The notes below the pieces were generated by a model that worked only from the letters and a program-made list of their open reading frames with translations, did no database searches and had not been told where the DNA came from. A stretch of DNA of 64,000 nt from an uncultured Mycoplasmatota bacterium (GTDB taxonomy: Bacteria; Bacillota_I; Bacilli_A; RF39; UBA660). The stretch covers positions 44,157-108,156 of the forward strand of contig CAMJBC010000004.1 in assembly GCA_946403755.1 (NCBI GenBank). Reading direction: 5' to 3'. Positions 921 through 49,250 of this stretch are shown here, piece by piece; positions within the stretch are counted from its first letter, which is position 1; every line of letters starts with the position of its first letter. The position numbers and the translations under genes were made by a program.

Positions 921-950
921 AAAAAACACTTTTAAGAAAAGTGTTTTTTA
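921..950 (-). terminator. Rho-independent terminator after the M48 protease gene
   Basis: Hairpin ACACTTTT-aag-AAAAGTGT flanked by an A-run and a T-run; it overlaps the stop codon at 948. Confidence 0.6.
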
Positions 951-2531
951 TAAAACTGATAATGCAATTAATACAATTGCTACTATTCCAAAAGTAATAT
1001 ACATAGATTTAGATAATCCATATGTCCATATTTTCTTAGTTTGTCCATCTACTGTATATTCTTTTATTTCTACATATGGAACAGGACTTCTTCTGTACCA
1101 TCCTTTTACTGTTACTTCTTTATCAAAATATTCTTTTGATTTAAATATAGCAAATATTTTATTAATAATATTTAATGGTTGATTATAATCTAAAAATATA
1201 ATACCTGTTTTATCTTTTACAATAAAATCTTCATTAAATATACATCCTGGATTTCCTCTACCAATAATAGTACCAGTTAATATACAAGGTATTGAAGTAA
1301 CATGTGAAACTTTAACTTCACCAAGTAAATCTCTTACAGTTGTTTCTTTATAATCTTTATTTTTATGTGCTCTATTAAATCCAATATAAGCTGTAGCTAC
1401 AGTTAATAATAAACCTATTCCAACTACCATCATAATTCTAGTATTAAATATAAATGCAGCTACTACTGTTAATAATACACAAAGTGTTGGTAAAAATTTA
1501 ATTAATAATTCAATAAAGAAATCATCAACATAACTTTCTGGTTTTTCTAAATCAAATACAATATATGGTCTTTGATTAAATTCTTCACTACGTTTAGAAA
1601 TAGCAATTAGTCTTCTTGAAATTAATGGGTGAGTAGAATTTAATTGGAACCATAATGCCCATGGATTCCACATTTCCCATTTCATAGCATTTTTAATATG
1701 TGTCTCTGATATTTGATTATTTTCATCTGTACATGTTACTACTAAAGATTTAGATGTTGCTGAATCAAATATACCTAAAGCATTCTTTTTATTAACATCA
1801 TGTTTTCCTTTTTTCTCTGCTGTACTTAATCCAAAACCTATTTTAACTAATGCACTAGCTAATGAATTAGGATTTTTAGTTTCTTCAAGTGAGAATTCAT
1901 CAGCATAATACTCTCTTGTTCTAGATAACCATAAAATAATATATTGACTAATTATATATAAAATATATGCTATCCAACCTACTATAGCTGCTTTATTATT
2001 ATCACTATCACTACTATTGCTTCTTGCAAATATTTCATAAATTGCATATAAAACTAATGGTACTACTTGTACTGCAGTCATAAATAACATATCGTAATGT
2101 ACTACATGTCCAAGTTCATGAGCAACTACTGCTTTTACTTCTTCTTCTGTTAATAATTCATATATTCCTCTTGTAATAACAATTCTAGCATCATTTTTAG
2201 TTCTACCATATGTAAATGCATTTGGTCCACCATCATCTATAACTGCTACACGAGGATTTTTCATATTATATTTTTTACATTCATCAAATAAGAATGATTT
2301 TAAATATTCTGGTAATTCAGCCTTAAAGTCAGCTTTATAAAATAATCTCATTGATAAATCTGTTAACCATGGAGATATTAAGAATTGAATAAATAATATA
2401 CAAATACTTATACCTACTCCAATTAACATATCAGCACCAATTAATTTAAATATTAATAATATTACTGCTGCTAAAAGTCCATATAAACAAGTTATTGTAA
2501 GTAATGAAACTCCTAATAATTTACTTTTCAT
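948..2531 (-). CDS. M48-family (HtpX/Ste24-like) membrane zinc metalloprotease with a long C-terminal extension
   Basis: HExxH motif in AVVAHELGHVVHYD and a downstream Glu in REYYADEFS. Several hydrophobic TM segments. RBS AAGGAGGA. The start lies 15 nt after the EF-Tu-like ORF. Confidence 0.8.
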   Translation of the reverse strand: MKSKLLGVSLLTITCLYGLLAAVILLIFKLIGADMLIGVGISICILFIQFLISPWLTDLSMRLFYKADFKAELPEYLKSFLFDECKKYNMKNPRVAVIDDGGPNAFTYGRTKNDARIVITRGIYELLTEEEVKAVVAHELGHVVHYDMLFMTAVQVVPLVLYAIYEIFARSNSSDSDNNKAAIVGWIAYILYIISQYIILWLSRTREYYADEFSLEETKNPNSLASALVKIGFGLSTAEKKGKHDVNKKNALGIFDSATSKSLVVTCTDENNQISETHIKNAMKWEMWNPWALWFQLNSTHPLISRRLIAISKRSEEFNQRPYIVFDLEKPESYVDDFFIELLIKFLPTLCVLLTVVAAFIFNTRIMMVVGIGLLLTVATAYIGFNRAHKNKDYKETTVRDLLGEVKVSHVTSIPCILTGTIIGRGNPGCIFNEDFIVKDKTGIIFLDYNQPLNIINKIFAIFKSKEYFDKEVTVKGWYRRSPVPYVEIKEYTVDGQTKKIWTYGLSKSMYITFGIVAIVLIALSVL

Positions 2532-2546
2532 ATTTTCCTCCTTATT

Positions 2547-4067
2547 TTATTCTATTACCTTATTAATTATACCAGCACCAACTGTTCTACCACCTTCACG
2601 AATAGAAAAATATGTTCCTTTTTCTATTGCCATTGGAGTGATTAATTCAACAGTCATATCAACATTGTCACCAGGCATAACCATTTCAGTACCTTCTGGT
2701 AATGTAACTACGCCAGTAACATCAGTTGTTCTAAAATAGAATTGTGGTCTATAGTTATTGAAGAACGGGGTATGACGTCCACCCTCTTCTTTAGATAATA
2801 TATATACAATAGCATTAAATTTTTTATATGATTTAATGCCACCTGGAACACTTAAAACTTGTCCACGCTCAACATCTTCTCTATTAATACCACTAAGAAT
2901 TATACCTACAGTATCACCAGCTACAGCTTTATCTGTTGTTTTTTGAAACATTTCAACACTTGTTACAGTGGATTTTTGTGTGTCCTTAATACCAACTATT
3001 TCAACAGGATTATTTACACTAATTTTACCTGTTTCAACACGACCTGTAACAACAGTTCCACGTCCTGTAATAGTAAACACATCTTCAATGCCCATTAAGA
3101 ATGGTTTTTCCTCTTTTGTTTGAGGACTTTCTATCCATTTATCTGTTGCTTCTATTAACTGCTTAACAGCATTAGTATCATTTGCTTTTCCAACAGTCAT
3201 TGGTGTAGCATTTGGATCAAAATTATAACTCTTTAGCAATTCTTTTACATCATCTTTCACAAGATTTATTGCACTATCATTTGATACATCATCATTTATA
3301 TATATTGAAACTTTTGATGCTCCTACTTTATTTAATATAGATAATTCTTCTCTCAATTGTGGTTGTATCCCAGCTGAAGCTTTTACAACTAATATAGCTC
3401 CATCTACTTCAATTCTACCTGTAATAGCTGATTTTACAAAATCTGCAAACCCACAATTATATGAAAAATACATTTTTCTACTTCCAACACTAATTTTTAC
3501 ACGTGTTAAATTTGTTAAAATGCCATTATCTACAGATCCAGCACATTTTTCAATGTCAGAAGCACTTACTTCTTTTCCATAAACTTTTGTAACTGTTGAT
3601 AATACTTCTTCTTTACCACTATTCACGTCACCAGTAAAAAATAAAGATAAATAGTCTTTGCTTCCCTTAACAAATGTATTACTTTCTGGGCTAGTAATAT
3701 TATTTAAATTATTATTGTTACTAGAATTATTATTTGTATTATCATTATTTTGAATATTGTTTTGATTTGTATTTATATTATTATTTTCTTTAGTTTTATT
3801 ACCATTCATTTTTAAAACTAATACTATTATTACAATTACCAATACTGCTATAACAGCTATAAAAATTATTGTATTATTTTTCTTCTTTTCTCCAACATTA
3901 TTTGAATTATCATTATTTGTATTACTCATTGGAGTAACACTTTCAATATTATTTTGAATAGATTCATTATTTTGAACCACTTCACCATTATTTTGAATTT
4001 GTTCTTGGCCAGGTGCATTATTTGTAACTGGTTCACTATTATTTTGATTAAAATTATTATCTTCCAT
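2547..4067 (-). CDS. Membrane-anchored EF-Tu paralogue with degenerate G motifs (pseudo-GTPase)
   Basis: Preferred start is ATG 4067 (RBS AGAGGA 5 nt upstream) rather than the track start 4097, which overlaps dtd. Order of parts: Asn-rich head, TM helix IIFIAVIAVLVIVIIVLVL, Asn-rich linker, EF-Tu-like body. G1 is GDVNSGKE (tuf GHVDHGKT), G3 is NCGFA (DCPGH), G4 is INDD (NKCD). Domains II/III are about 140/186 identical to the tuf at 24351-25520 by hand alignment. Confidence 0.85.
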   Translation of the reverse strand: MEDNNFNQNNSEPVTNNAPGQEQIQNNGEVVQNNESIQNNIESVTPMSNTNNDNSNNVGEKKKNNTIIFIAVIAVLVIVIIVLVLKMNGNKTKENNNINTNQNNIQNNDNTNNNSSNNNNLNNITSPESNTFVKGSKDYLSLFFTGDVNSGKEEVLSTVTKVYGKEVSASDIEKCAGSVDNGILTNLTRVKISVGSRKMYFSYNCGFADFVKSAITGRIEVDGAILVVKASAGIQPQLREELSILNKVGASKVSIYINDDVSNDSAINLVKDDVKELLKSYNFDPNATPMTVGKANDTNAVKQLIEATDKWIESPQTKEEKPFLMGIEDVFTITGRGTVVTGRVETGKISVNNPVEIVGIKDTQKSTVTSVEMFQKTTDKAVAGDTVGIILSGINREDVERGQVLSVPGGIKSYKKFNAIVYILSKEEGGRHTPFFNNYRPQFYFRTTDVTGVVTLPEGTEMVMPGDNVDMTVELITPMAIEKGTYFSIREGGRTVGAGIINKVIE

Positions 4068-4080
4068 TTTTATCCTCTTT

Positions 4081-4530
4081 TCATTTAAATAACTCATTAC
4101 TATCTAAAACAATAGTAACTGGTCCATCATTATATATTTCTACTTTCATATCAGCACCAAATATTCCTGTTTCTACTATTACATATTCTCTTAGTTTTTC
4201 ATTGAACATATCATATAATTTAGTAGCTTCAGCAGGATTTAATGCTTCTGTGAAAGATGGACGTCTTCCTTCTTTACAATTAGCATATAAAGTAAATTGA
4301 CTAATACTTAATATACTTCCATTAACATCAAGAATACTTAAATTTATTTTACCTTGATCATCTTCAAATATTCTTAAGTTAACTATTTTATTAACCATTT
4401 TATCTATAATAGCTTCATTGTCACCTTCAGTAAAGCCTACAAGAACTACATATCCATGATCAATTTCTCCATTTACTTTACCATCTATTGTAACTTTACT
4501 TTTTTTACTTCTTTGTATTACTGCTCTCAT
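4081..4530 (-). CDS. dtd: D-aminoacyl-tRNA deacylase
   Basis: 149 aa reading MRAVIQR...VVLVGF...SQFTLYA...GRRPSF...GPVTI, typical of Dtd. TAATG overlap with the rel stop, the classical rel-dtd pairing. Ends in TGA. Confidence 0.9.
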   Translation of the reverse strand: MRAVIQRSKKSKVTIDGKVNGEIDHGYVVLVGFTEGDNEAIIDKMVNKIVNLRIFEDDQGKINLSILDVNGSILSISQFTLYANCKEGRRPSFTEALNPAEATKLYDMFNEKLREYVIVETGIFGADMKVEIYNDGPVTIVLDSNELFK

Positions 4531-6602
4531 TAAATAAATATCCTTTCTACTTCTCTAACATTACTTATTGTTTTAACTTCATCTAGGAAATTTGTAAGAG
4601 AAGAAATATTTTTAACTTTAACACTCAAATCATAAAATAATTCTTTATTTCTATTTATTAAATTAATTGAGTCAACAATAATATCTGATTTAGTAGCAAG
4701 TGTAATAATTTTAAGAAGTATATCACTAACATCTTCTACATATACTTTTACTTTAGCAGAATATCTATTATCTAAATTTTCTTCCCATTTAGCTTCAATA
4801 ATTCTTTCACTATCCAAGTCTATATTAGGACAGTTTTTAGAGTGAATTTTAACTCCATATCCACGAGTTATATATCCTACTATTTCTTCTCCATAAACTG
4901 GATTACAACATGTAGCAAGAGTTGATAATATATCTGTTGAACCTGCTATTATAATACCATTTGAATTTTTATTACCTTTCTTTGGTAATTGTTTAATTTT
5001 TGGTTTTTCTTCTTTTACTTCTAATTTATTTAATAATGTAGATGGAAGAACTTTAAATGTTGATACTGAGAAATATATATCATCTAAATTATCTAATTTA
5101 TATGCTTTACATAATTTATCTATATTTTCATCATTAAATAATTCATTTAAATCAACATTTCTCTTCTTACATTCATTATTAAGCATTTCATGTCCAGTAG
5201 CAATATATTTTTCTCTTTCTTTTTTGTAATAGTATGCTTTAATTCTACTTTTAGCTGTATCAGTTTTAACTATTTTTAACCAGCCTTTTGATGGAGCATG
5301 TCCTTTTTGAGTAATTAATTCTACTAAATCTCCATCTTGTAATTCATAGTCTAATTTAACCATTTTTCTATTAACTAAAGCACCTGTTGTTGTATTACCT
5401 ACTTCACTATGAATTTTATATGCAAAATCTATTGGTGTTGCTCCACTAGGTAGTTCAATAATATCTCCTTTTGGAGTATAAACATATATTTCACTTCTTT
5501 TTAATTCATCTTTTATATTAACAAAGAAATCCATATTTTGTTCAATATCATTTGCTTCTACTAATACTCTAAATTGTTCTAATATTTTATCTAAATTATT
5601 TTTAACACTACCATCTGTTTTTTCTTTATAGCTCCAGTGTGATGCTACACCTTTTTCAGCTATTTCATCCATTTCATAAGTTCTTACTTGAACTTCATAT
5701 ATTCTTTTATCTTCACCAAAAACAGTAGTATGTAAACTTTGATATAAATTTGGTTTTGGATTTGCTATATAGTCTTTAAATCTATTTGGTATTGGTGAAT
5801 ATTTAGCTTGTACTAAGCCTACTACTCTATAACAATCTTCAACTGTATCTACTAAAACTCTTAGTCCTAGTAAATCATATATATCATTCCAAGCTTTACC
5901 TGCTTTTAATTTATTATAAATTCCACGAACAGATTTTACTCTTGATAATATTTCATATTTAATATTATGCTCATTTAATATTTGCATAATTTCATATTTC
6001 ATTTTTGATAATGATTTTTCAAGTTCTGTTTTAGAAGAATTAATTCTATCTAATACTCTATTATATTCTTCTGGATCAGTGTATTGAAGACATAAATCTT
6101 CCATTTCACTTTTCATTTTTTTCATACCAAGTCTATGTGCTATTGGTATATATATATTTTGAGTTTCATCAATTATGTATTGTTGATGAACTTCATCATG
6201 TACTTTTAATGTTCTTAAATTATGAAGTCTATCTGCAAATTTAATAAATAAAGTTGCTGGATTTTCAGATAAACCTACTATAATTCTTCTATATTTTTCT
6301 GGATTATTTATTTTAAATGTTTGTTTTAAATTACTTATTTTAGTAATTGATAAAACTATATCAGCTGCATCTTTTCCAAACATTTCTTCTATTTCTTCAT
6401 AAGTCATTTTATTTAAAGAAATAGCTTCGTGTATTAATGCACAACCTATTGTTTCTGAATCCATTTTTAAAGCAGCTAAAATATAAGCTACATTTATAGG
6501 ATGAAGAATATAATCATCACCTGTTTTTCTCTTCATCCCATCATATATTATTTTAGCTTGTTCATAATACCTATCAATATAGTCTATATATTCTTGTTCC
6601 AT
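4530..6602 (-). CDS. relA: Long RelA/SpoT-homologue (p)ppGpp synthetase; hydrolase motifs look degenerate
   Basis: Synthetase signature DYIANPKPNLYQSLHTTV...YEVQVRTYEMDEIAEKGVASHW. TGS- and ACT-like C-terminal half. The N-terminal HD region reads HPINVA...LIHEAISLN where Firmicute Rel has LHDVVEDT. No obvious SD before the ATG. Confidence 0.85.
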   Translation of the reverse strand: MEQEYIDYIDRYYEQAKIIYDGMKRKTGDDYILHPINVAYILAALKMDSETIGCALIHEAISLNKMTYEEIEEMFGKDAADIVLSITKISNLKQTFKINNPEKYRRIIVGLSENPATLFIKFADRLHNLRTLKVHDEVHQQYIIDETQNIYIPIAHRLGMKKMKSEMEDLCLQYTDPEEYNRVLDRINSSKTELEKSLSKMKYEIMQILNEHNIKYEILSRVKSVRGIYNKLKAGKAWNDIYDLLGLRVLVDTVEDCYRVVGLVQAKYSPIPNRFKDYIANPKPNLYQSLHTTVFGEDKRIYEVQVRTYEMDEIAEKGVASHWSYKEKTDGSVKNNLDKILEQFRVLVEANDIEQNMDFFVNIKDELKRSEIYVYTPKGDIIELPSGATPIDFAYKIHSEVGNTTTGALVNRKMVKLDYELQDGDLVELITQKGHAPSKGWLKIVKTDTAKSRIKAYYYKKEREKYIATGHEMLNNECKKRNVDLNELFNDENIDKLCKAYKLDNLDDIYFSVSTFKVLPSTLLNKLEVKEEKPKIKQLPKKGNKNSNGIIIAGSTDILSTLATCCNPVYGEEIVGYITRGYGVKIHSKNCPNIDLDSERIIEAKWEENLDNRYSAKVKVYVEDVSDILLKIITLATKSDIIVDSINLINRNKELFYDLSVKVKNISSLTNFLDEVKTISNVREVERIFI

Positions 6603-6664
6603 GTATGTTTTTAATAGGTCTTTTAATTCTCTGTATTCGTGATCTTTGATAATATCACATCCTT

Positions 6665-8914
6665 TTAATCATTTATTCCTTTAATCTTTAATTCTTGAGG
6701 ACCATCATCATCATCTTCTTCAGGTCTATTCATAGTTTTGCTTTCAAGAACCATCCAAATTCTAGGACCAATTAATAATGATGAAATAGTACCTGCGATT
6801 AATCCTATTAAAATAGCTAAATTAAATGTAAAAATATCATTTAAACCTACACTTAATAATGTAATAACAGAAACAACAGTAGTTACACTAGTCCATAAGT
6901 TTCTATTAAATGTTGTTGAACTAGATTCATTTACAAGTTTTTCTAATTCATCATATGTAAGTTTCTTTCTATTATGATATAGTTTTTTCTTATTAGCTCT
7001 AATTCTATCAAATACAACAATAGTATCATTAATAGAATAACCAATTATTGTAAGAAGAGCTGCTACTATAATAAAATCTACACTAACATTAAATATAGCA
7101 AATAATGCAAGTATTATTAATACATCATGTATTAACATTAATATACCAGTAATAGCATAATTAAAGTTAAATCTAATTACCATATATATTACTATTGCAA
7201 TAATTGCATATATTAATGACATAATAGCATTCTTAGTTAAACTTTCTGTTACTAAAGTACTAATTTCACTAGAAGAAGATTCAATACCTAAATCAAGTAA
7301 TTTATTTTTTACTTCTATTTCATTTTCTTCTTCTAATATATTATTAAGAACAATATATCCTTCTTTTTGAGTACCTACATAGTAATCATAATCTCTTATA
7401 TCATAATCTTTAACTATTTCTTTTACTTTATCAAAATTAATATCTTTTTCACTAGATAAAACAATATTAGTTCCACCAGTAAAATCTACTCCAAAGTTAA
7501 ATCCTCTTACTATTGCAAAAGCTATACCTACAGCTATTATACATACAGATAATATCATAGGTCTTCTAGCTTGTTTAACATAATCTATATCTCTATGTCC
7601 TCTAATTTTACCAAATAATGCACTTTGTTTTTCATTAAAGAATTTAGAGTTAACTGCCATACTTAATAATAATCTATAAAGAATTACTGCAGCAAAAACA
7701 GTTACAAATATAGTAATTATTAACATAGTAGCAAATCCTTTTACTGAAGATTCACCAAATATATATAAAACTATACCTGCTATTAATGTAGTAATATTAG
7801 CATCTACTATAGCTACTAAACTACTCTTAATACCTTCTTTATATGATTTAACTAAATTACTATTACCATATAATTCATCTTTAATTCTTTCATTAGAAAT
7901 AATTATTGAATCTACAGCCATACCAATACCTAGTACTAATGCTGCAATACCAGTTAATGTTAAAACTCCATCAACTGCATTAAATAATACAAATACAAGT
8001 AATGCATATACAAATAAGCATATACTTCCTAGAAGTCCACTTACTCTATATTTAAATATTAAAATAAGTGAAATAATAATAAATGTAATAATACCAGCAA
8101 GTCCAGTTTTAGAAATTGTTTCTGATCCAAATGCTGGAGAAACACTTTTTGGTGTTGCTTCTTCAACTAATTTAGTTGGTAAAGATCCACTATTAATTAA
8201 ATCAGCTAAATATTGAGCATCATCTTTAGTGAAGTTTCCTGTAATAACAACACTCTTACTACTTAAACCTTCATTTACATATGCTGCTGATATACATCTC
8301 ATATCATTACAAGCATTTTTTTCACCATAGTCTTCTACTCTTCTTTTATATGAATCATTTTCTTCATCAAAATCTAACCAAGTAATCATCAAATTTTCAC
8401 CTGTTCCAGATTTTGCTGCTATTGCTTTAGTTACTTCATAAAATTTAGAAGTATCTTTTATATCTAATTTAACTTGATAAGTAAATATTTGACCACTAGA
8501 AGAAGTATTTTGTTCAATAGTTGCTCTATTACCTAACACTTCACTTGTTAATAATAAATTATCATCTACGTCTCTAAAAGATAGTACAGCTGTTGTACTA
8601 ATTCTTTGTCTTGCTTCTTCTTCATTAGATACTCCAGGTAATTGTATTCTAATTAAATTATCTCCTTCAAAATTAATAACTGGTTCTGAAACACCTAATG
8701 TATCTATTCTATTAGAAATAGCTGTATAAGTATTTTTTAAATCAGTTTCATCTATAGTATCATTAGCATCAAGTGGTTCTATTCTATAAAGAATTTCAAA
8801 TCCTCCTTGTAAATCAATACCATAAGATATATCTTTAATAGTAGGTTTTATTAAGTATGCTCCTGCTAATAAAATGATGATTATAACTATTAGTAATTTG
8901 TATATTTTTTTCAT
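6665..8914 (-). CDS. secDF: Protein translocase subunit SecDF (fused)
   Basis: 749 aa. Signal anchor, large periplasmic-type loop, then two blocks of six TM helices with SecD/SecF motifs (GIGMAVDSIII, GYSINDTIVVFDRIR). RBS AGGAGG. Confidence 0.9.
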   Translation of the reverse strand: MKKIYKLLIVIIIILLAGAYLIKPTIKDISYGIDLQGGFEILYRIEPLDANDTIDETDLKNTYTAISNRIDTLGVSEPVINFEGDNLIRIQLPGVSNEEEARQRISTTAVLSFRDVDDNLLLTSEVLGNRATIEQNTSSSGQIFTYQVKLDIKDTSKFYEVTKAIAAKSGTGENLMITWLDFDEENDSYKRRVEDYGEKNACNDMRCISAAYVNEGLSSKSVVITGNFTKDDAQYLADLINSGSLPTKLVEEATPKSVSPAFGSETISKTGLAGIITFIIISLILIFKYRVSGLLGSICLFVYALLVFVLFNAVDGVLTLTGIAALVLGIGMAVDSIIISNERIKDELYGNSNLVKSYKEGIKSSLVAIVDANITTLIAGIVLYIFGESSVKGFATMLIITIFVTVFAAVILYRLLLSMAVNSKFFNEKQSALFGKIRGHRDIDYVKQARRPMILSVCIIAVGIAFAIVRGFNFGVDFTGGTNIVLSSEKDINFDKVKEIVKDYDIRDYDYYVGTQKEGYIVLNNILEEENEIEVKNKLLDLGIESSSSEISTLVTESLTKNAIMSLIYAIIAIVIYMVIRFNFNYAITGILMLIHDVLIILALFAIFNVSVDFIIVAALLTIIGYSINDTIVVFDRIRANKKKLYHNRKKLTYDELEKLVNESSSTTFNRNLWTSVTTVVSVITLLSVGLNDIFTFNLAILIGLIAGTISSLLIGPRIWMVLESKTMNRPEEDDDDGPQELKIKGIND

Positions 8915-9314: not shown

Positions 9315-12092
9315 ATGGCACTAGTAAAATTAAATTCAATAAATGATATAATTGGCAAAAAAGCTGGTACTTATAATATACCATTTAAGTGTAATGGTAG
9401 AAACTACACTTTTATTATAACTATAGGCAATAACATTGATAGCAATACTAGTATTACTCTTCAAGGGTATGGCCAAGGTGGTAATGGAAATAGCGTTTTA
9501 CAACATTTAAATACTGGTGGCAATAATATAGACGTAATCGTACAAGCTGGTCAAGGTGGTAATGCTTATGAATCATCAGGATGGCAAGATGCTACAACTA
9601 GTTTTATTCAATCATTATCAAAAAAATTAAATTTAAATAAAAATAATACTGTTTTAACAGGGTTTAGTTTAAGTGCAGAAATGACTGCTAAATATGCTGC
9701 ATCATTTGCTAAAAAAACAGGAGCAAATAATTTTTGTGCTGTAATTACTGAATCTTCTTGGGGTGCTCCTTTAAAATTAAGTGAAAGTGAAAGAAAATCT
9801 TTAATAAATAATAATGTTACTCTATTTAACGTATATCAAAATAAAAATCGTAGTTTAACAAGCCATGTATCAAATACCAATGGTGTTCATATTATTGATG
9901 TTAATATTAAACATTCTGGTGGAGACATGCATGCTTTACCATATTTATTATTGATGAATAAAGGTATCAATAATATAGCTAATGGTAAATTTAATTTTAC
10001 TTCTCTTCCAAAAACATTTAAATATTATGGACAAAATGTAAAATTAGACTATGAATTTATTGAACATTATGTTAATAAAAATGGAAAATATGTTAGTAGA
10101 GTTTTAAGTGCTGAAGAAGTACAACAAAAAGTTGATGAAATGTATAAAGCAAATCTTGAGTCACTTTATAAAAATAATAAAAATTTATCAGAATTTGCTC
10201 AAAACTTTACTGATGGTATTGGTACTAACCTAGCATCAAATCTTTCATATGTATCAAATGCTATGAATTCCTTAAAAGGAAAAATAACTAGTCATTCAGA
10301 CTTAAATTATACAAAAGGATCTAGTAATGAAGCTGGAATAATTGGTGCTATGTATTCAGCAACTAATTATTATGGCGCAGTTACTAATGTATTATATGGA
10401 AATTTAAGTTCTGAAGCAGATGCAGTATATGCAATAGCAAATGCTATATATCAAATGGATGGATGTGCTGCTGTAATAGCAGATGAAACTCTAACTAATG
10501 GTGTTAGTAGTTTATTTAACTCACCTAACCTTTCTTCACAATTAAATGCATTAAAAAATACTACTGCAAACTTAGTTAATACTGCTAAAAACGCTGTTAT
10601 GGCTAATGGTAGATATGCTGAATTATCAAACTTATTAACTGGAAGTATAACAGCTGGTAACGTTGGAAAAATAAGTATTACTGCTTTAGAAAGTGCAGTA
10701 AACTCTGTTATTCCATCATTAAATAATGAAGTAGAAAAAGCTCAAGGATTAAAATCTAGTGTTGATGAATTCATGAGTGGAATTGGTTCATCTAATATAT
10801 TACAAGGTGGAGTTTGGAATGATGTTAAGACAAACATGGAATCATACCAAAACTTACTAGATTGTAATATGAAAGCATCTAGTTTTATATCAGATACTAT
10901 TAAAACTGCTATGGGAGTTGTAGTAGACTACATTAATGGATCATCTGATGCTATTAGTGCTGTATCAGGAACAGATTATAGTAGTTTAGTAACAGCTGGT
11001 GAACTTGATGATTCTAAATTACCTCAAATACAAGCATTACTTGAAGAAATAGATAAACAAGTTAACATTGTAAAATCAACCATAACTGAGATGGAAAATG
11101 CTAAGGAACAATCTTGCTCAACCCCAATAGGTACAGAAGCACCATCTTGTGTATGGGTAAATAAATATAGTTCATCAGATATACAACCATTTAGAGATTC
11201 ACTTACAAAATATGAAACTGAGCAAGCTGCATTAAATGCATATTCAGCTAGATTAGAAGGTTTAGCACCACTAGTTGAAAATGCACAAAAAATGATTAAT
11301 GATGCTATAAGTCAAGTTAAGAATATGTATGAAAATCCAGTAACAAATGCACAAGGAAATCAAACATTTAATGCTGACTTTAAGCTAGATATGAGTGCAT
11401 ATAAATTTGAAAAAGATGGATCATATTATAAAAATTTAATAAATGATTATTATGATAAATTAAATTCAAAAACTCCAGATGAGGTTACACCTACAGCTGA
11501 TTATGATAGTGGTTCTTCTTATGGGGATGAATATTATGGTGGTAATAATACTCCTACTCCAACACTTGAACCAACTACTGAAGAACCTACAATAATGATT
11601 GAAGTAATAACTGAAGTTCCTTCAGAGGTTGCTAGTTTTGATGAAATATTTGAACCATCCACTGAAATTGCTACAACATATTCTGAAGTAACAACTGAAA
11701 TATCTTATGATACAGAACCTGTTATTCAAAATAATGTAGAAAATAAAGTCATTGGAAATAATAATAAAAGACAAACTAATACTAATATAGAAACTCCTAC
11801 TATACCTGTTGAAATTCCTCCTGAAGAAATTAAAGAAGTTCCAATGGAAAATGAATATTCTGGAAATAGTGATTATGTTGAAGAAATAATAACACAACCA
11901 GAAATAATAGAAATTCATGAAGAACCTATTGTTGAAGAAACTATAAACATAGATACTGATAGAACAGTTAAAACAATGGGTGTCGCTGCTAGTATAGGAG
12001 TAGCACTTGGAGCAGTTAGTCTTGGTGCTCATTCAATAATTAAAAATAAAAATAATGAAGATGAAGAATCTGATTATGGATATGATAAATAA
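9315..12092 (+). CDS. 925-aa protein without a signal peptide: N-terminal alpha/beta-hydrolase-like domain, LXG/WXG-like helical module, P/T/E linker, C-terminal TM tail anchor
   Basis: Nucleophile-elbow-like VLTGFSLSAEM. The helical module (aa 305-716) is collinear with aa 720-1112 of the 1347-aa ORF. C-terminal TM KTMGVAASIGVALGAVSLGAHSII followed by KNKNNEDEESDYGYDK. Confidence 0.8.
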   Translation: MALVKLNSINDIIGKKAGTYNIPFKCNGRNYTFIITIGNNIDSNTSITLQGYGQGGNGNSVLQHLNTGGNNIDVIVQAGQGGNAYESSGWQDATTSFIQSLSKKLNLNKNNTVLTGFSLSAEMTAKYAASFAKKTGANNFCAVITESSWGAPLKLSESERKSLINNNVTLFNVYQNKNRSLTSHVSNTNGVHIIDVNIKHSGGDMHALPYLLLMNKGINNIANGKFNFTSLPKTFKYYGQNVKLDYEFIEHYVNKNGKYVSRVLSAEEVQQKVDEMYKANLESLYKNNKNLSEFAQNFTDGIGTNLASNLSYVSNAMNSLKGKITSHSDLNYTKGSSNEAGIIGAMYSATNYYGAVTNVLYGNLSSEADAVYAIANAIYQMDGCAAVIADETLTNGVSSLFNSPNLSSQLNALKNTTANLVNTAKNAVMANGRYAELSNLLTGSITAGNVGKISITALESAVNSVIPSLNNEVEKAQGLKSSVDEFMSGIGSSNILQGGVWNDVKTNMESYQNLLDCNMKASSFISDTIKTAMGVVVDYINGSSDAISAVSGTDYSSLVTAGELDDSKLPQIQALLEEIDKQVNIVKSTITEMENAKEQSCSTPIGTEAPSCVWVNKYSSSDIQPFRDSLTKYETEQAALNAYSARLEGLAPLVENAQKMINDAISQVKNMYENPVTNAQGNQTFNADFKLDMSAYKFEKDGSYYKNLINDYYDKLNSKTPDEVTPTADYDSGSSYGDEYYGGNNTPTPTLEPTTEEPTIMIEVITEVPSEVASFDEIFEPSTEIATTYSEVTTEISYDTEPVIQNNVENKVIGNNNKRQTNTNIETPTIPVEIPPEEIKEVPMENEYSGNSDYVEEIITQPEIIEIHEEPIVEETINIDTDRTVKTMGVAASIGVALGAVSLGAHSIIKNKNNEDEESDYGYDK

Positions 12093-22984: not shown

Positions 22985-24268
22985 CTATTTTATTTTAATA
23001 GTATCCTTATCCATATATATAGCACTACTTATATTAACAACAGGTCTAATAGCATTTCCATTAGTAAATGTATCACCTATTGAACTATATAATATATTGC
23101 CACTTACAGTATTATCATAAATATTAAAAAGTCCAAATAATGCATAACTATCAAATGCGTTTACATATCTACTAGATAACCATGTATTATATTTTGGATT
23201 CATAAATATATCATAATATGTTCCATTAAAATTAGAGTATTCCATTTCATGAGTCCAATAATCAACATTTATTTCTAAAAATTCTTCTTTTGTATAAGGC
23301 TCTTCAGTAATTAATTCACCTGGTTCACTTTTTGATAATTTATTTAAATATTGTTTTGGAGTATATGTATTTATCTCATATTTAATATATCCATTATTTG
23401 TTTGTGGATTATAGTATGTTTTATAATCCCATAGTTTGCTTAAATTAGATTCTATGTCTTCTATAGCTAAATTTCTAGCTGAAGCATTATAACTACCATA
23501 TAATTTATTACATATATCATTCAATAAATAAACTCCATTATTATATCCATTACTTCCACTTAAATATAATAGATTATTTTTATTATCTATAGTTATTGGT
23601 TGCTCAGAAATAATATTAATACTTCCATCATCTAATACATTTAATAGTTTCCATTTAGATGATTTTTTTATTACATTTTGATCTTTATTATATCCAGATA
23701 ATTCTTTTTCAACTACATATTTATCATTAGAATTAACAGGTGAATAATTTACATTTGTTCCAACTAAAAGAGTATTAGTTATTTCACTATATCCTTCTTT
23801 AACTTTAACATCTTCAAGAGGATTATTAGAGTATCCACTTGCTACATCAAATTTAATTTTAATTAATTTATCACTTGTATTACTAACAAATAATTTGATT
23901 TTTTTGCTTTCATTAGGTAATATACTTCCACTTGGTGCTTCATTTAAATAAAAGATACTAATACCACTATTATTTAAATAAGATAATTTATATTTAGTTT
24001 CTACTTCATTTAGTGATGTAAGTTCAGTATTTAAAATAATATTACCTGGTTTAATAGATATTTCATTAGTATAAACATTGTTTATTTTAAATTCATAATC
24101 AAGTTTATTAACTAACATCTCTACTGCTCTATGATTTGAAGATTTATAAATAAAGTTAGAGTAAGACGTACTAAAAGAAATACATACCAAAATTAGGAAT
24201 GCAGTTAAAAGTATAATTCTATTTCTAATTATTTTTATATACCTTCTATCTTTCATAGTTTTCCTCAT
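22985..24268 (-). CDS. Signal-anchored secreted/surface protein of unknown function
   Basis: N-terminal basic stretch, then TM IILLTAFLILVCISF followed by STSYSNF. Beta-rich body. C-terminal ...WLSSRY...NAIRPVVNIS motif. Confidence 0.6.
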   Translation of the reverse strand: MRKTMKDRRYIKIIRNRIILLTAFLILVCISFSTSYSNFIYKSSNHRAVEMLVNKLDYEFKINNVYTNEISIKPGNIILNTELTSLNEVETKYKLSYLNNSGISIFYLNEAPSGSILPNESKKIKLFVSNTSDKLIKIKFDVASGYSNNPLEDVKVKEGYSEITNTLLVGTNVNYSPVNSNDKYVVEKELSGYNKDQNVIKKSSKWKLLNVLDDGSINIISEQPITIDNKNNLLYLSGSNGYNNGVYLLNDICNKLYGSYNASARNLAIEDIESNLSKLWDYKTYYNPQTNNGYIKYEINTYTPKQYLNKLSKSEPGELITEEPYTKEEFLEINVDYWTHEMEYSNFNGTYYDIFMNPKYNTWLSSRYVNAFDSYALFGLFNIYDNTVSGNILYSSIGDTFTNGNAIRPVVNISSAIYMDKDTIKIK

Positions 24269-24350: not shown

Positions 24351-25520
24351 TTATTCTAAAATTTCAGAAACTACACCAGCACCAACTGTTCTACCACCTT
24401 CACGAATTGAGAAGTTTGTTCCGTTTTCAATTGCGATTGGAGTGATTAATTCAACAGTCATATCAACATTGTCACCAGGCATAACCATTTCAGTACCTTC
24501 TGGTAATGTAATTACACCAGTAACATCAGTTGTTCTAAAGTAGAATTGTGGTCTGTAGTTGCTGAAGAATGGAGTATGACGTCCACCTTCTTCTTTAGAT
24601 AATACATAAACGCTAGCTTTGAATTTCTTATGTGGTGTAACACTACCTGGTTTACATAGAATTTGTCCTCTTTCAACATCTTCTCTGTTAATTCCACGAA
24701 GTAAAACTCCAGCATTATCTCCAGCTTCAGCATAATCTAAAGATTTTCTGAACATTTCAATACCAGTAACAACTGTTTTTCTAGTATCTCTAATACCAAC
24801 AATTTCAACTTCATCGTTAAGATTTAATCTACCTCTTTCAACACGACCTGTAACAACAGTTCCACGTCCTGTGATAGTAAATACATCTTCAATGCTCATT
24901 AAGAATGGTTTTTCTGTATCTCTTACTGGAGTATCAATCCATGTATCAACAGCAGCCATAAGATCTTTAATAGGTTGTACCCATTTTTCATCTCCTTCAA
25001 GAGCCTTAAGAGCTGAACCACGAATAACTGGAGTATTGTCTCCATCAAATCCGTATTCATTTAATAATTCTCTAACTTCCATTTCTACTAAATCAAGAAG
25101 TTCTGCGTCATCAACCATATCACATTTATTGATGAATACTACCATTTTTGGTACACCAACTTGACGTGATAATAAGATGTGCTCTCTAGTTTGAGGCATT
25201 GGACCATCTGTAGCAGAAACTACTAAGATAGCTCCATCCATTTGAGCAGCACCAGTAATCATATTTTTTACATAGTCTGCGTGTCCTGGACAGTCAACGT
25301 GAGCATAGTGACGTTTGTCAGTTGAATACTCAACGTGAGCAGTATTAATAGTAATACCTCTTTCCTTTTCTTCTGGTGCTTTATCGATTTGATCATAAGC
25401 CATAAATTCACCAAAATATTTAGTAATAGCAGCTGTTAATGTTGTTTTACCATGGTCAACGTGTCCAATAGTACCAATATTAACATGTTCTTTAGAACGA
25501 TCGAATTTTTGTTTTGCCAT
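24351..25520 (-). CDS. tuf: Elongation factor Tu
   Basis: Canonical [21 protein letters not shown] and SALKA motifs. 389 aa. Last gene of the str operon. Confidence 0.98.
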
Positions 25521-45206: not shown

Positions 45207-48200
45207 TTATTTTTCATAACCGTAGTCAGCATCTTCATCATCGTCTTCTCTACTCTTGATGATTGTATGTGCTCCAAGAGCACTAGCTCCTACTGCTAAA
45301 CCTATTCCAGCTGCGATACCCATTGTCTTAATACCATTGTTTTTCTTAACAGGTTCTGGTTCTGTTGGTATATCTATATCTATATCGTATTCATCAATAC
45401 TTGGCTCTTCAATTATTGGCTCTTCATATTCATCAATACTTGGTTCTTCAATAATTGGTTCAGTTTCAATTGGTAATTCCTCAGTTGGTGTTTCTACTGG
45501 AAGTGTTGGATTTTCATCAACTGGATCTTTTGGTTTCTTATTTGATCCGCCACCGCCACCAGGTTTTTTCTTACCAGGTTTATTTGTTGGAGGTTCTGTT
45601 GCTTCAGTTGGAGGTTCTGTTGCCCCTGTTGGAGGTTCAGTTCCTTCAGTTGGAGGTTCTGTTGCCTCTGTTGGAGGTTCAGTTGCTTCTGTTGGAGGTT
45701 CTGTTTCCTCTGATGGAGGCTCTGTTGTTGATGGTGGCTCTGTTGTTGTAGAAGGTTCAGGTGTATCTGGTCCTCCAATTGGTCCAGTATAAGTATCATC
45801 GTCATCGTCATCATCGTCATCATCATTACCAGTTGTTGGTTCATCTTGACCAGTTGTTGGCTCATCTTGTCCAGTTGTTCCTTCAGTTGCTGGAGGAGTT
45901 TGACCTTCTGCTTCAGCTTTTACTTTATCATAGAAATCTTTAAATATTTGATTGAAGTCAGTGCCTTTAGCTAGTCCATACGCTGATAAATCTACTTGTA
46001 ATGTATTAAATGATTTATTATTTTGAACAAAGCCTACAGGATCTGCATATGCAGCCTTAATTTGGTTAACAGCATCTAAAATTACATTTTGTGCTTCAGT
46101 TAATACAGCTGATAGTCCTCTTAATTTTTCTACTAATTTTGTTAATTCATCAAATACAGTTTTTGCATTATCAAGTGCTGCTTTAGCAGCTCCTACATCT
46201 GGACAAGTTACTGCTGGAGAAATTACTGTTCCATCAGTTGCAACTTCTGCTGCTTTTGGTACGCAAGATAATGCTGCTTGATATGCTGCTTCTGCATCAT
46301 TATATGCTGTTTCTGCTTCTTTCAAAGCTTGTTCTTTTGCTTCTAATTCACTATCATCTAATGAATCATAATCACCCATGTATGCGATAATTATGCCCAT
46401 AGCTGTTTGCATAGCTTCTTGTAAGAATTCAGCAGATTGTTGACTAACTTTTAACATATCTTTATATGTTGCAAGATTTGTTGCTACATCTTCCCAAACT
46501 CCACCTGCTAATAAATTTCCAGCTCCTATTCCAGCCATGAAGTCATCTACGCCTTGAGATAAAGCTTTAGCTCTATCTATTTCAGCATCTAAAGTTGGTG
46601 TGATTGCAGATACTGCTGCTTTAAGGGCATCTACACTAATCTTTCCAGATTTTCCGGCTTCTAATTGTTGAGTTAATGTATTTGCTAATTCATCATATCT
46701 TCCGCCTGCATTTAATGCTTCTTGAGACATGCTTAATTGTAACGCATCAGATGCAGCTTGTAATCTATCTAATTGATCGCGCATTCCAGGATTATCAGCA
46801 TTATATAAATCTGTCATTCCTTGAGATAATGTTGAATCAGCTAAAAGTGCAGCACATTCATCCATTTGATAAATTAAGTTAGCTATTCCATAAATTGCAT
46901 CAGCTTCTGCGCTTAAATTATCATATAATCTATTAGTTACAGCACCATAATAATTAGCTGCTCCATATAAAGCTCCTACTACAGAAGCTTCATTATCAGA
47001 TCCTTTTGTATATTGTAAATCATTATGAGCACCTATTTGACCTTTAATACTTTGCATGTGATCGCTAACAAAGCATAAGTTAGATGCTAATGTTTTATCA
47101 TCTTTAGTTGCATATCCTGATGAGAAAGAACTTAATGATGGTTTTGTTTTAGTATCTTCGACTGTTACTCCATCTTCATTAATAATTTCAATTACAGTCT
47201 CATTATCATAATATGTTCTTCTTTCTATTTTTCCTGTTACTGGATCTTTAACTTCTACTGTTCTAGCATATTTTTCAATTAATCCATCTTTATTATAAAC
47301 AATTTGTGTTGTTACTATACCATGTCCATTGTCTTCTGTTGTTACAACAGTCTTATTTCCTTCTGCATCTCTTGTTACAGTTGTAGTTGATACAGTAACT
47401 CCACCTTTGGCAACAGATGTTTCTTCACTAATAATTTCGCCTTTATCATTTGTTTTAATAATTGTTGTTTGTTTATATTCATTTTCTGTATCCAAGTTAA
47501 TAGCTTGAGTTGTTTCAGTTGTTGTTACTCCATTTGTTGTGATAGTTCTTGTAACTGAAACTGAACCGTCTTCTTCTAATGTGATTTTTTCAGTTAGTTC
47601 TCCATCTGGAGTATCATATATATTTGTTTGTACTGTTGCTTTTGATCCGTCATTTCTTACTATATCTTGAGTATCAGATTTTTTAGGAGTAGTGTTAGGA
47701 GCTAGTGACCCCTCAGGATTTTCCTCTGTTGAAACTTCCCCAGTAGGTACTTCCTCTGTTGAGACTTCCCCAGTAGGTGTTTCCTCTGTTGGAACTTCCC
47801 CAGTAGGTGTTTCCTCTGTTGGAACTTCCCCAGTAGGTATTTCCTCTGTTGGAACTTCTTCTACTGGAGTTTCTGCAGGGATGACTGCAGCATCTCTTTC
47901 TAAAGCATACTCAGGGTCAGTTTCTGCTAATGCTGCTATAAAATTATCAGCATTATACGTACGTGTTACAGGTGCTCCTGATCCTGATTCATATGTTGTT
48001 ATTGTTCCACCTACTAGGCGTCCATTTTGATCATAAGTTGAAACTACTACTCTATCATTGCTGGTATTATCCCACATGTTTCCACCTAAAAATCCATTGC
48101 TATCATTTCTATGATAAAATTGTGTTGTTACTGTTGTTTGTTGTGTTTCCGGATCAACATAAAATATCTCTCTTGCTACAACTTCTCCACTATCATGTCT

Positions 48201-49250
48201 TGCATAAACCCTTACTATAGTATTCTCATCAGCACGTTGGTCTTTAGTTAAATATCCATATCGTGCATCTGGCATATTAGAGTACTCTTTTGGTGATTCA
48301 TGTCTATCGCCACCCCAATACACATCTCCACCTTCTAAAATTCCTGAAGCTTGAGGTGGAATATTTGGTGCTTCATTTGTAGGTGCTCCAACTGATTGAA
48401 CAGGTCCATCTTTCTGTGGTGTACTTACAACTCCTTGTCCATCTGTTGGATGATTATTTGGATTTTCTCCACTGGCTGGTTGTTCTGCTGTTGCCGCAGG
48501 TGGTTGTGTACTTACAACTCCTTGTCCATCTGTTGGATGATTATTTGGATTTTCTCCACTGGCTGGTTGATCTGCTGTTGCCGCAGGTGGTTGTGTACTT
48601 ACAACTCCTTGCCCATCTGTTGGATGATTATTTGAATTTGTACCACCAATTGGTTGTTCTGCTGGTGTCGCTGTTGGTATACTAGTTTGGTTAGTAACTG
48701 AAGGAGGATCTTGGTGAGCTGGTGCTCCAACTCTAACATAATCAGGTACTTGTGCACTTATTTGTTCCCTCATTTCTGTAGCGCCATAACTTCTTTCTAC
48801 ACCTGCTGTACTTACAGAATAATCTTTAATTGTTCCTCCAGTCATAACACCATTTGCATCATAATTTACAGTCATAACTAAATCATTGCTTGTATGATCA
48901 TAAGTATTAAAAACTCTTCCAGTATCATGATAAAATTGAGTAGTTACAGAGAATGAACCATCTGGGTTAATGTGTTTTACTTCTCTAGCACATACTTCAA
49001 ATCTTAATTGACTTCCATTTGTGTTAAGATCCGCAGAATAAACCGTTACAAACGTATTATCATCTACTTTTTCAGTATGATGATAATGCAATGGCACATT
49101 AGAATATGGATCTATTGGTTCTGTTAAATTTGCTTGCCAACTATTTGCTCCAGTTTGTACTCCATATCCAGGAGGACTTGTGGGCTCTATTACGCCTAAA
49201 TCCCCTTCCATAAATTTAAAAGTTTTATAATTTTTTAACATAGCGATCAC
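45207..49250 (-). CDS. 1347-aa repeat-rich protein without a signal peptide: duplicated N-terminal beta domain, tandem repeats, YD-like beta region, LXG/WXG-like helical module, P/T/E linker, C-terminal TM tail anchor
   Basis: RBS AGGTGA. Paralogue of the 925-aa ORF across aa 720-1112 and in the tail (KTMGIAAGIGLAVGASALGAHTIIKSREDDDEDADYGYEK). Contains a poly-Asp run and three in-frame tandem repeat arrays. Confidence 0.85.
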   Translation of the reverse strand: MIAMLKNYKTFKFMEGDLGVIEPTSPPGYGVQTGANSWQANLTEPIDPYSNVPLHYHHTEKVDDNTFVTVYSADLNTNGSQLRFEVCAREVKHINPDGSFSVTTQFYHDTGRVFNTYDHTSNDLVMTVNYDANGVMTGGTIKDYSVSTAGVERSYGATEMREQISAQVPDYVRVGAPAHQDPPSVTNQTSIPTATPAEQPIGGTNSNNHPTDGQGVVSTQPPAATADQPASGENPNNHPTDGQGVVSTQPPAATAEQPASGENPNNHPTDGQGVVSTPQKDGPVQSVGAPTNEAPNIPPQASGILEGGDVYWGGDRHESPKEYSNMPDARYGYLTKDQRADENTIVRVYARHDSGEVVAREIFYVDPETQQTTVTTQFYHRNDSNGFLGGNMWDNTSNDRVVVSTYDQNGRLVGGTITTYESGSGAPVTRTYNADNFIAALAETDPEYALERDAAVIPAETPVEEVPTEEIPTGEVPTEETPTGEVPTEETPTGEVSTEEVPTGEVSTEENPEGSLAPNTTPKKSDTQDIVRNDGSKATVQTNIYDTPDGELTEKITLEEDGSVSVTRTITTNGVTTTETTQAINLDTENEYKQTTIIKTNDKGEIISEETSVAKGGVTVSTTTVTRDAEGNKTVVTTEDNGHGIVTTQIVYNKDGLIEKYARTVEVKDPVTGKIERRTYYDNETVIEIINEDGVTVEDTKTKPSLSSFSSGYATKDDKTLASNLCFVSDHMQSIKGQIGAHNDLQYTKGSDNEASVVGALYGAANYYGAVTNRLYDNLSAEADAIYGIANLIYQMDECAALLADSTLSQGMTDLYNADNPGMRDQLDRLQAASDALQLSMSQEALNAGGRYDELANTLTQQLEAGKSGKISVDALKAAVSAITPTLDAEIDRAKALSQGVDDFMAGIGAGNLLAGGVWEDVATNLATYKDMLKVSQQSAEFLQEAMQTAMGIIIAYMGDYDSLDDSELEAKEQALKEAETAYNDAEAAYQAALSCVPKAAEVATDGTVISPAVTCPDVGAAKAALDNAKTVFDELTKLVEKLRGLSAVLTEAQNVILDAVNQIKAAYADPVGFVQNNKSFNTLQVDLSAYGLAKGTDFNQIFKDFYDKVKAEAEGQTPPATEGTTGQDEPTTGQDEPTTGNDDDDDDDDDDTYTGPIGGPDTPEPSTTTEPPSTTEPPSEETEPPTEATEPPTEATEPPTEGTEPPTGATEPPTEATEPPTNKPGKKKPGGGGGSNKKPKDPVDENPTLPVETPTEELPIETEPIIEEPSIDEYEEPIIEEPSIDEYDIDIDIPTEPEPVKKNNGIKTMGIAAGIGLAVGASALGAHTIIKSREDDDEDADYGYEK
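45585..45740 (-). repeat. In-frame 21-nt tandem repeat (EPPTEAT units, about 7 copies)
   Basis: Encodes TEPPSTTEPPSEETEPPTEATEPPTEATEPPTEGTEPPTGATEPPTEATEPPT. Confidence 0.85.
47721..47870 (-). repeat. In-frame 30-nt tandem repeat (TPTGEVPTEE units, 5 copies)
   Basis: Encodes TPVEEVPTEEIPTGEVPTEETPTGEVPTEETPTGEVSTEEVPTGEVSTEE. Confidence 0.85.
48417..48656 (-). repeat. In-frame 87-nt tandem repeat (29-aa units, about 2.75 copies)
   Basis: The string gtacttacaactcc recurs at 48421, 48508 and 48595. Encodes ENPNNHPTDGQGVVSTQPPAATA(D/E)QPASG. Confidence 0.9.

Follow-up and report, generated by a model that had tools for sequence, protein, structure and literature searches.

A 64,000-nucleotide (nt) stretch of DNA from an uncultured Mycoplasmatota bacterium of the gut (contig CAMJBC010000004.1, positions 44,157 to 108,156; hereafter the window) carries, besides a genuine tuf gene, a gene for an elongation factor Tu (EF-Tu)-like protein that combines a predicted transmembrane (TM) anchor with a broken GTPase centre. 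This protein is, with high confidence, a real member of a new family of anchored pseudo-GTPases, and we lean, though not strongly, towards explaining it as a signal-anchored, surface-displayed and nucleotide-independent binding module with the EF-Tu fold.

The mechanical open reading frame (ORF) in the list for the window spans 2547..4097 on the minus strand and 516 amino acids (aa). The real start is the ATG at 4067, giving a protein of 506 aa, because a Shine-Dalgarno (SD) sequence precedes it, while the alternative ATG at 4097 has no SD in the sequence upstream and overlaps the dtd gene. From its N-terminus, the protein consists of a disordered head rich in Asn and Gln, a KKK motif, one TM helix, an Asn-rich linker and a three-domain EF-Tu body, with the boundaries given in Table 1. 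This order had been proposed in an initial annotation of the DNA and was confirmed by hydropathy, Pfam and AlphaFold2, as was the tethering to the membrane by one helix, which has a hydropathy of 3.9 and was modelled by AlphaFold2 as a helix at residues 66-87. In the same model, the predicted local distance difference test score (pLDDT) is below 50 in the head (1-64) and the linker (88-130) and above 90 throughout the EF-Tu body, so that the fold check suggested in that annotation also came out in its favor. Foldseek aligned the body with crystal structures of open, GDP-form EF-Tu at a template-modelling score (TM-score) of 0.92-0.94 and a root-mean-square deviation of ~1.5 Å.

The body keeps the three-domain EF-Tu fold, a G domain and two beta-barrels, with all three Pfam domains present, and matches the genuine tuf product of the window with 54% identity over residues 146-516 in the 516-aa numbering (BLASTP, E = 5e-147). 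Identity is 36% in the G domain, 68% in domain II and 84% in domain III, the latter two values being close to an earlier hand count of about 140 identical residues among 186 for these two domains. The Pfam GTP_EFTU score is 54 bits, compared to 220 bits for tuf, and the protein stays below the NCBIfam cut-offs for canonical EF-Tu, with 411.7 bits against 522.4 for the TIGR00485 equivalog and 417 bits against 449 for PRK00049. Nor does it have the layout of a soluble, cytosolic protein of ~390-400 aa encoded downstream of fusA, being 506 aa long with a TM helix and encoded between dtd and an M48-family peptidase gene. Peptides unique to its G domain include FFTGDVNSGK and MYFSYNCGFADFVK.

Motif alignment confirmed the reported breakage of G1 to G4 (Table 1), and G5 has changed from SAL to KAN. 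Eleven nucleotide- or Mg-contacting residues were scored (K24, T25, D50, T61, D80, G83, H84, N135, K136, D138 and S173 in E. coli EF-Tu numbering), the E. coli sequence used having the expected letter at every checked position. Only four of the 11 are kept, and the losses include T25, T61, D80, H84 and K136. The G2 Thr is gone and the glycine equivalent to G83 is retained (NC-GF); across the family, the G2 Thr is lost in most, not all, members, and the same is true of the G3 glycine. Nucleotide binding and hydrolysis are predicted to be lost and the GTPase to be dead. At the sequence level, the protein is a pseudo-GTPase, with the GTPase fold kept and nucleotide-binding and catalytic residues lost. 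In addition, His66 is replaced by Arg, a change that, together with the dead switch regions, argues against GTP-dependent delivery of aminoacyl-tRNA (aa-tRNA).

Relatives were sought by an exhaustive phmmer search that used the G domain as query and covered 1.84 billion cluster representatives, and the best 150 of the 300 matches with E <= 1e-10 served as the family census. Reading these sequences and scanning them for hydropathy revealed at least 24 clusters, counted at the 50% identity level, with the same head-TM-linker-EF-Tu layout. The TM-anchored proteins outranked ordinary EF-Tu in this search, and the best matches, two fragmentary or chimeric EF-Tu entries aside, are ~340-540 aa long and begin to match at residue 115-270 rather than at residue 10. 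The family layout comprises a head rich in N, Q, P or E, a PKK or KKK motif common to the family before the one TM helix, a low-complexity linker and an EF-Tu-like G domain; the window protein has all of these, with GEKKKNN, a TM helix at residues 67-85 and a 50-aa Asn linker. Behind the G domain, two body plans were found. Domains II and III are both present in P0127, P0130, P0132, P0133, P0134, P0153, P0169 and the window protein, while domain III follows directly, with no domain II, in P0131, P0139, P0149, P0154, P0160, P0163, P0203, P0206, P0135, P0166, P0172, P0261 and others, about half of the family in all. One of these domain-II-less members was predicted as a confident two-domain fold, with pLDDT >90. 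The G motifs of the family range from near-intact (P0151, P0134) to obliterated.

In neighbor-joining (NJ) trees of the G domain, the family and the window protein are monophyletic in 200/200 bootstraps, sit among EF-Tu of Bacilli-type metagenome-assembled genomes (MAGs) and have P0130 and P0133 as the nearest relatives of the window protein. The family occurs in uncultured low-GC Bacilli- or Mollicutes-like bacteria. The taxonomic setting of the window itself was read from names in protein clusters: its genuine tuf falls in the 90% cluster of 'MAG: elongation factor Tu [Mollicutes bacterium]', and entries labelled 'MAG: Mollicutes bacterium' and 'MAG: Bacilli bacterium' belong to the 90% clusters of tuf and fusA. 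Word-indexed searches returned three ordinary EF-Tu fragments only for the G domain alone, the protein's own cluster and ordinary EF-Tu only for the full length, and partial genuine EF-Tu only for a 16-sequence family G-domain alignment, which did not recover the family itself. A scan of species-representative genomes with the G domain found no family member, the only match being an Acidimicrobiales tuf. Two entries considered as long relatives, P0005 and P0006, were rejected as internally duplicated, chimeric true EF-Tu. Both they and P0128 consist of genuine EF-Tu in internally duplicated or chimeric form, probably through faulty assembly, and can mimic extended paralogues in length screens. 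Two further EF-Tu proteins with intact G motifs carry extensions of other kinds: P0193 has an N-terminal zinc ribbon and a ~130-aa spacer with no TM helix, and in P0235 the C-terminus is extended by ~150 aa that contain repeated EQEYL...EGEI motifs.

The destroyed G motifs, a tuf-like 3′ end and the public existence of chimeric EF-Tu entries such as P0005 and P0006 could all be read as signs of a functionless gene, either a tuf duplicate in decay or a chimera formed with tuf during assembly, and the initial annotation had named both possibilities. The gene's own 90% cluster, drawn from NCBI and ENA assemblies, contains four alleles of 501-506 aa, all intact. At one related locus (L004), on a separate 35-kb ENA contig, the order secDF-relA-dtd-EF-Tu-like gene-M48-mutS is the same, and a scan of the JGI collection gave one full-length copy at 96% (L012) and the 3′ end of another at 97% (L011). 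In total, at least five assemblies, independent of each other and made from different samples, have an uninterrupted reading frame, so sister strains carry an intact gene and not a frameshifted one. Since a chimera would be expected to match tuf at 100% over a continuous block and the differences are instead scattered along domains II and III, with 76 nt as the longest identical run, the gene is not a chimera. The ratio of non-synonymous to synonymous substitution rates (dN/dS) between the window and L004 is 0.22 for the whole gene, similar to the 0.06-0.18 of neighboring genes. Compared by domain, as the initial annotation had proposed, it is 0.17 for the G domain, a value resting on small counts of 8.5 synonymous and 5.5 non-synonymous changes, against 0.42 for domain II and 0.11 for domain III. 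The EF-Tu-like gene is under purifying selection, with dN/dS of ~0.2, and the low ratio extends to the 'dead' G domain. Together with an SD of its own, a confidently predicted fold and an architecture common to the at least 24 related clusters, this leaves decay or chimerism with next to no probability.

The three domains of the body differ in their relation to tuf at the DNA level. Synonymous divergence (dS) from the resident tuf is 1.09 in the G domain, 0.61 in domain II and 0.34 in domain III, and the fraction of identical amino acids that use the same codon is 0.45, 0.72 and 0.84, respectively, with 0.55 expected from codon usage. Third-position identity to tuf is 0.3-0.6 in the G domain, 0.63-0.83 in domain II and 0.67-0.93 in domain III, where the maximum of 0.93 lies near residues 454-484 (516-aa numbering). 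NJ trees of domain III place the window protein with genuine Bacilli EF-Tu in 85% of bootstraps, compared to 4% in which it joins the family. The fall in dS from 1.09 to 0.34 and the grouping of domain III with genuine EF-Tu therefore indicate that the 3′ half of the gene was overwritten by tuf-type sequence through gene conversion, with the genuine tuf of the window, the reference copy here, as the likely conversion partner. Gene conversion between tuf copies has been described before (Lathe and Bork 2001, as cited in PMC6822514).

This history bears on the reading in the initial annotation that the conserved barrels reflect preserved aa-tRNA binding, which is not supported. As the 3′ half was overwritten by tuf-type sequence, the high identity of domains II and III is no evidence for kept aa-tRNA binding, and in the family, domain II, the T-stem contact residues and His66 are often lost. 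All seven domain III residues that contact the T-stem are present in the window protein, as are 6/10 of the D1/D2 tRNA-contact residues, while many family members keep only 0-3/7 of the T-stem residues, and His66 is replaced in all members but one, the window protein being among those changed. The gene is a clear example of partial conversion in which an essential gene and its neofunctionalised paralogue take part, and such events can mislead the inference of function from conservation.

The EF-Tu-like gene stands in an apparent operon with relA and dtd, with spacers of 13 nt and 15 nt on its two sides and no terminator. Using the neighboring M48 peptidase as a probe, 80 related loci were retrieved, among which sites without the gene were found. 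In five close relatives (L013-L016 and L024; relA 92-94% and dtd 91-97% amino-acid identity), the M48 gene begins 15-18 nt after dtd, and in four more distant loci (L018, L022, L043 and L048; relA 74-80%), dtd likewise lies directly before M48. No EF-Tu-like sequence was detectable at these nine loci. The junctions are clean, the empty site reading TTATTTAATAAATAGGAGGAAAATATG and the filled site having the 1.53-kb gene with its own SD between TTATTTAAATGA and AATAAGGAGGAAAATATG, with no repeats or mobility genes at the insertion junctions. Because dtd abuts M48 at nine related loci, absence of the gene is the ancestral state, and its acquisition was limited to a narrow lineage. The contexts of six other family members bear no relation to this one, with neighbors that include a sulfatase-family gene, a YitT-family gene, Zn-ribbon membrane proteins, DUF362 and a helix-turn-helix regulator. 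The linkage to relA and dtd is incidental, as the gene is a lineage-restricted insertion, and functional coupling to relA-dtd-M48 was rejected on the evidence of the empty sites. Surface proteins typically show presence/absence polymorphism of the kind seen at this locus. The initial annotation had noted neither the family nor the accessory nature of the gene.

Along the cluster (948-8914), dS between the window and L004 differs about ten-fold from gene to gene, being 0.05 for dtd, 0.09 for the EF-Tu-like gene, 0.22 for relA and 0.52 for M48 and secDF. The M48 gene also occurs in two allele classes, ~96-97% and ~84% identical, beside near-identical EF-Tu-like genes. This pattern suggests recombination breakpoints at the edge of the insertion.

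The orientation of the protein in the membrane can be approached through the N-termini of the family. Three members (P0149, P0163 and P0186) begin with a CxxC...CxxC zinc ribbon, a structure that needs a reducing cytoplasm. Another three (P0141, P0147 and P0206) have only 4-10 residues (MKNK, MNKK and MNYSNNKNTK) ahead of the hydrophobic helix and resemble signal anchors, and five members have acidic heads of 150-220 aa with conserved linear motifs; long charged N-tails require a signal peptide for translocation. With the N-terminus held in the cytoplasm, as the zinc ribbons, signal anchors and long acidic heads all suggest, and with a single TM helix, the EF-Tu body would lie outside the membrane. 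An N-in/C-out topology with an extracytoplasmic EF-Tu body is, on these grounds, the probable arrangement. It would make sense of the loss of the nucleotide site, there being no GTP outside the cell, as well as of the Asn/Ser/Thr-rich stalk and of an accessory, fast-evolving gene.

The 150-220-aa heads of P0135, P0166, P0172, P0261 and P0270, presumed to be cytoplasmic, carry EEPVMIAxNIDEM once and VPTFQQMPE usually twice. These conserved motifs suggest that the heads of the P0135 group may have a conserved intracellular partner. P0134 and P0151 share the motif NYxFDPMTGQPIQQ.

As we picture it, the window protein would be a type II (signal-anchor) membrane protein with its Asn/Gln-rich head in the cytoplasm and its single TM helix spanning the membrane, and a stalk of ~50 Asn-rich residues would hold the EF-Tu body on the outer face. 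The body would no longer bind Mg-GTP or play any part in translation and would instead act as a nucleotide-independent binding module. It might serve, for example, as an adhesin or receptor, a putative role that we offer only tentatively. The protein would then be a dedicated, exported version of the surface moonlighting reported for ordinary EF-Tu. Its gene was inserted between dtd and M48 in this lineage, and the 3′ half was later homogenised with tuf-type sequence.

A further feature of the G domain may be connected with the loss of the nucleotide. C175, at the position of E. coli A52 in switch I, and C205, equivalent to C81, are the only cysteines of the window protein. The equivalent pair is present in 10/11 members of its subclade and absent from all 14 others; P0153 keeps the first Cys of the pair only. 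In EF-Tu-GDP, D50 and D80 together hold the Mg2+ waters, and the two cysteine positions may for that reason be near enough for a disulfide. Speculatively, a C175-C205 disulfide could serve as a staple in place of the lost Mg-nucleotide.

Several observations weigh against surface display of a nucleotide-independent module, or against parts of the case for it. The 15 residues flanking the TM helix are positive on both sides, with family sums of +51 (N side) and +41 (C side), and the positive-inside rule alone therefore does not decide the topology. P0151 and P0134 keep near-intact G1, G4 and G5 motifs and might still bind nucleotide. Where domain II is present, its pocket (E215, D216, F218, T228, R262, N273 and R288) is well kept, which could mean that a ligand resembling a tRNA end is retained. 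P0133 comes from a bioreactor metagenome, and host adhesion is for this reason not a universal role of the family. The Cys-pair pattern is confined to one clade and hence to few evolutionary events. Lastly, the monophyly of the family comes from NJ trees of fast-evolving sequences, in which long-branch attraction is possible, although shared derived characters agree with it, namely, GDxNS(G/T)K in G1, the loss of Pro82, the new switch I Cys and a deletion in the SALKALEGD region.

The initial annotation had offered two roles, a surface adhesin and a membrane tether or sensor; of these, surface display is the better fit to the zinc ribbons, acidic heads and MNKK-type N-termini, and the tether fared poorly. 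A tether would have the reverse topology, N-out/C-in, and its cytoplasm-facing body would, with no turnover of GTP, sequester or sense aa-tRNA, ribosomes, EF-Ts or a cytoskeletal partner. Cytoplasmic partners are known to use EF-Tu as a scaffold (PMC12803255), the gene shares an apparent operon with relA and dtd, both linked to translation or tRNA, and the tRNA-contact residues retained by the window protein and the positive charge on both TM flanks would also suit such a role. However, with nine loci lacking the gene and six members in unrelated contexts, the relA-dtd linkage is a recent accident, and the domain III residues are explained by gene conversion and largely lost in many members. 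Domain II is missing from about half of the family, and His66 survives in one member only. In an N-out protein, moreover, zinc-ribbon heads or acidic heads of up to 220 aa would need to be exported without a signal peptide. The tRNA-binding cleft of EF-Tu forms only in the closed GTP state, which is unlikely with dead switch regions, and the model matches the open GDP-form structures. We regard a cytoplasmic tether as unlikely.

Still less likely is a role in conflict with phages, in which the protein would be an EF-Tu decoy or sensor for EF-Tu-binding phage proteins (e.g., the major capsid protein, as in Lit/Gol or Avs7) or would block or attract phage from the cell surface. The presence/absence polymorphism among close relatives, the fast divergence of the family and its variable contexts would fit such a role, and capsid-sensing defence systems are known to recruit EF-Tu (PMC12803255). 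Yet PADLOC gave no match for the window protein, three family members or the neighboring peptidase beyond a single low-complexity one (E = 1.2e-3), there is no effector domain, and the nearby genes are housekeeping genes, with no defence-island or prophage genes among them. An extracytoplasmic body, furthermore, could not meet an intracellular capsid protein.

The surface-displayed module that we favor resembles several known systems and differs from each. Canonical EF-Tu (TIGR00485) has the same three-domain fold and 54% identity, and domain III shares recent DNA ancestry with tuf; the window protein differs in its head, TM helix and stalk, in keeping 4/11 nucleotide/Mg residues and in scoring below the cut-offs, and its gene is accessory and lies outside the rpsL-rpsG-fusA-tuf cluster. 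Extra tuf copies (tufA/tufB of enterics and tuf3 of Streptomyces) are likewise second, tuf-derived genes with evidence of gene conversion. Those copies, however, are cytosolic and functional or near-functional GTPases, while here a diverged, anchored paralogue was converted in its 3′ half only. A 2019 review of moonlighting (PMC6822514) gives one tuf per genome for low-GC Gram-positives. In Firmicutes, proteins such as TcaA (NCBIfam NF053815) have the same succession of a zinc-ribbon or low-complexity head, a single TM helix and an extracellular domain, the N-terminus of P0149 matches the TcaA model weakly (E = 1.2e-4), and the neighbors of P0134 are Zn-ribbon membrane proteins. The window protein has no zinc ribbon and has an EF-Tu-fold module, so that the analogy is one of architecture and not of homology of the body.

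Surface moonlighting of EF-Tu is documented, with repeated reports of the protein as an adhesin and immune target on bacterial surfaces, and EF-Tu has no signal sequence, its export route not being known; whether the exposure is meaningful or a by-product of lysis is still argued (PMC6822514). The moonlighting EF-Tu of Mycoplasma, Lactobacillus, Staphylococcus and others, whose host ligands include fibronectin, plasminogen, mucin and factor H, likewise has an EF-Tu fold, presumed to be surface-exposed, in a host of the low-GC Gram-positive or Mollicutes type. It is the product of the translational tuf, whereas the window protein comes from a separate gene and is anchored, with its GTPase lost. 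With pseudo-GTPases, the window protein shares a G fold predicted with high confidence to be kept and degenerate G1-G5 motifs. EF-Tu moonlighting may, in an account that we rate slightly below even, have been turned into a dedicated, Sec-inserted surface family, perhaps disulfide-stapled in one clade, with two- and three-domain forms, refreshed repeatedly from tuf and carried as a mobile accessory cassette.

In support of the initial statement that no such family had been described, no curated NCBIfam model covers the head-TM-linker-EF-Tu architecture, and full-text literature searches found no description of a membrane-anchored EF-Tu and no paper joining pseudoGTPase, bacteria and elongation factor. 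A 2015 survey of translational GTPase subfamilies makes no mention of transmembrane, Firmicutes or Mollicutes EF-Tu subfamilies. The protein would represent a bacterial pseudo-GTPase derived from a translational GTPase, a class that we did not find described. If the proposed explanation is true, an anchored, GTPase-less EF-Tu family would lend independent support from evolution to the view that the EF-Tu fold is useful outside the cell, and it would offer a clean experimental handle in which a putative surface function is separated from the essential function in translation. In practical terms, such genes are likely to be annotated automatically as 'elongation factor Tu' and could confuse tuf typing and marker-gene phylogenies of gut MAGs.

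Table 1 Positions of the EF-Tu-like gene, its parts and other genes in the window
Feature	Position	Strand	Remarks
Membrane-anchored EF-Tu-like coding sequence, complete	2547..4067	(-)	506 aa + stop; identical to public gene call P0004; intact alleles P0124, P0125, P0126
Head, residues 1-66	3870..4067	(-)	32% Asn; net charge -6; predicted disordered; ends GEKKKNN before the TM helix
Single TM helix IIFIAVIAVLVIVIIVLVL, residues 67-85	3813..3869	(-)	Mean Kyte-Doolittle 3.9; AlphaFold2 helix 66-87
Linker/stalk, residues 86-135	3663..3812	(-)	44% Asn; disordered
Degenerate G domain, residues 136-320	3108..3662	(-)	Pfam GTP_EFTU 54 bits; pLDDT >90
Domain II beta-barrel, residues 321-410	2838..3107	(-)	68% identical to tuf; Pfam GTP_EFTU_D2 69 bits
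Domain III beta-barrel, residues 411-506	2550..2837	(-)	84% identical to tuf; Pfam D3 128 bits
G1 GDVNSGKE (tuf GHVDHGKT)	3609-3632	(-)	Motif alignment
G2 NGILT (tuf RGITI)	3513-3527	(-)	Motif alignment
G3 YNCGFA (DCPGH to NC-GF, one residue deleted)	3444-3461	(-)	Motif alignment
G4 YINDDV (NKCD to IN--DD)	3285-3302	(-)	Motif alignment
C175	3543-3545	(-)	At the E. coli A52 position, switch I
C205	3453-3455	(-)	Equivalent to C81
Shine-Dalgarno AAGAGGA	4073..4079	(-)	5 nt upstream of ATG 4067, inside the 13-nt spacer after the dtd stop; read from sequence
dtd (D-aminoacyl-tRNA deacylase)	4081..4530	(-)	Upstream flank of the insertion; stop codon 4081-4083; Pfam Tyr_Deacylase
M48-family membrane peptidase gene	948..2531	(-)	Downstream flank of the insertion; own SD within the 15-nt spacer; Pfam Peptidase_M48
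Genuine tuf	24351..25520	(-)	389 aa; all G motifs intact; downstream of rpsG-fusA; Pfam 220/78/137 bits
Genes beside the EssC-like gene	53021-57016; 45207-49250	(-)	Pfam scan

Apart from these loci, the window also codes for EzrA, FtsK and an EssC-like ATPase. The last of these (57341-61897, minus strand) is 1518 aa long with FHA and FtsK/SpoIIIE ATPase domains and resembles EssC of type VII secretion; beside it are genes for a 1331-aa protein that carries a single Listeria-Bacteroides repeat and for a 1347-aa protein that Pfam did not match. In an Rfam scan of the window, rRNA was absent and the sole match was a T-box leader (52620-52814, minus strand; 105 bits), which lies upstream of the gene for an HD-domain protein (51849-52604) and also of a class I tRNA synthetase gene (49331-51859) with a Val-tRNA-synthetase C-terminal arm. 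Directly downstream of the genuine tuf is a 427-aa ORF (22985-24268, minus strand) with a signal-anchor-like N-terminal helix; Pfam matched neither this ORF nor one of 925 aa (9315-12092), the only long plus-strand gene in its stretch. In the C-terminal part of the 925-aa ORF, Glu, Pro, Thr and Ile are abundant, and this part ends in the hydrophobic anchor VAASIGVALGAVSLGAHSII.

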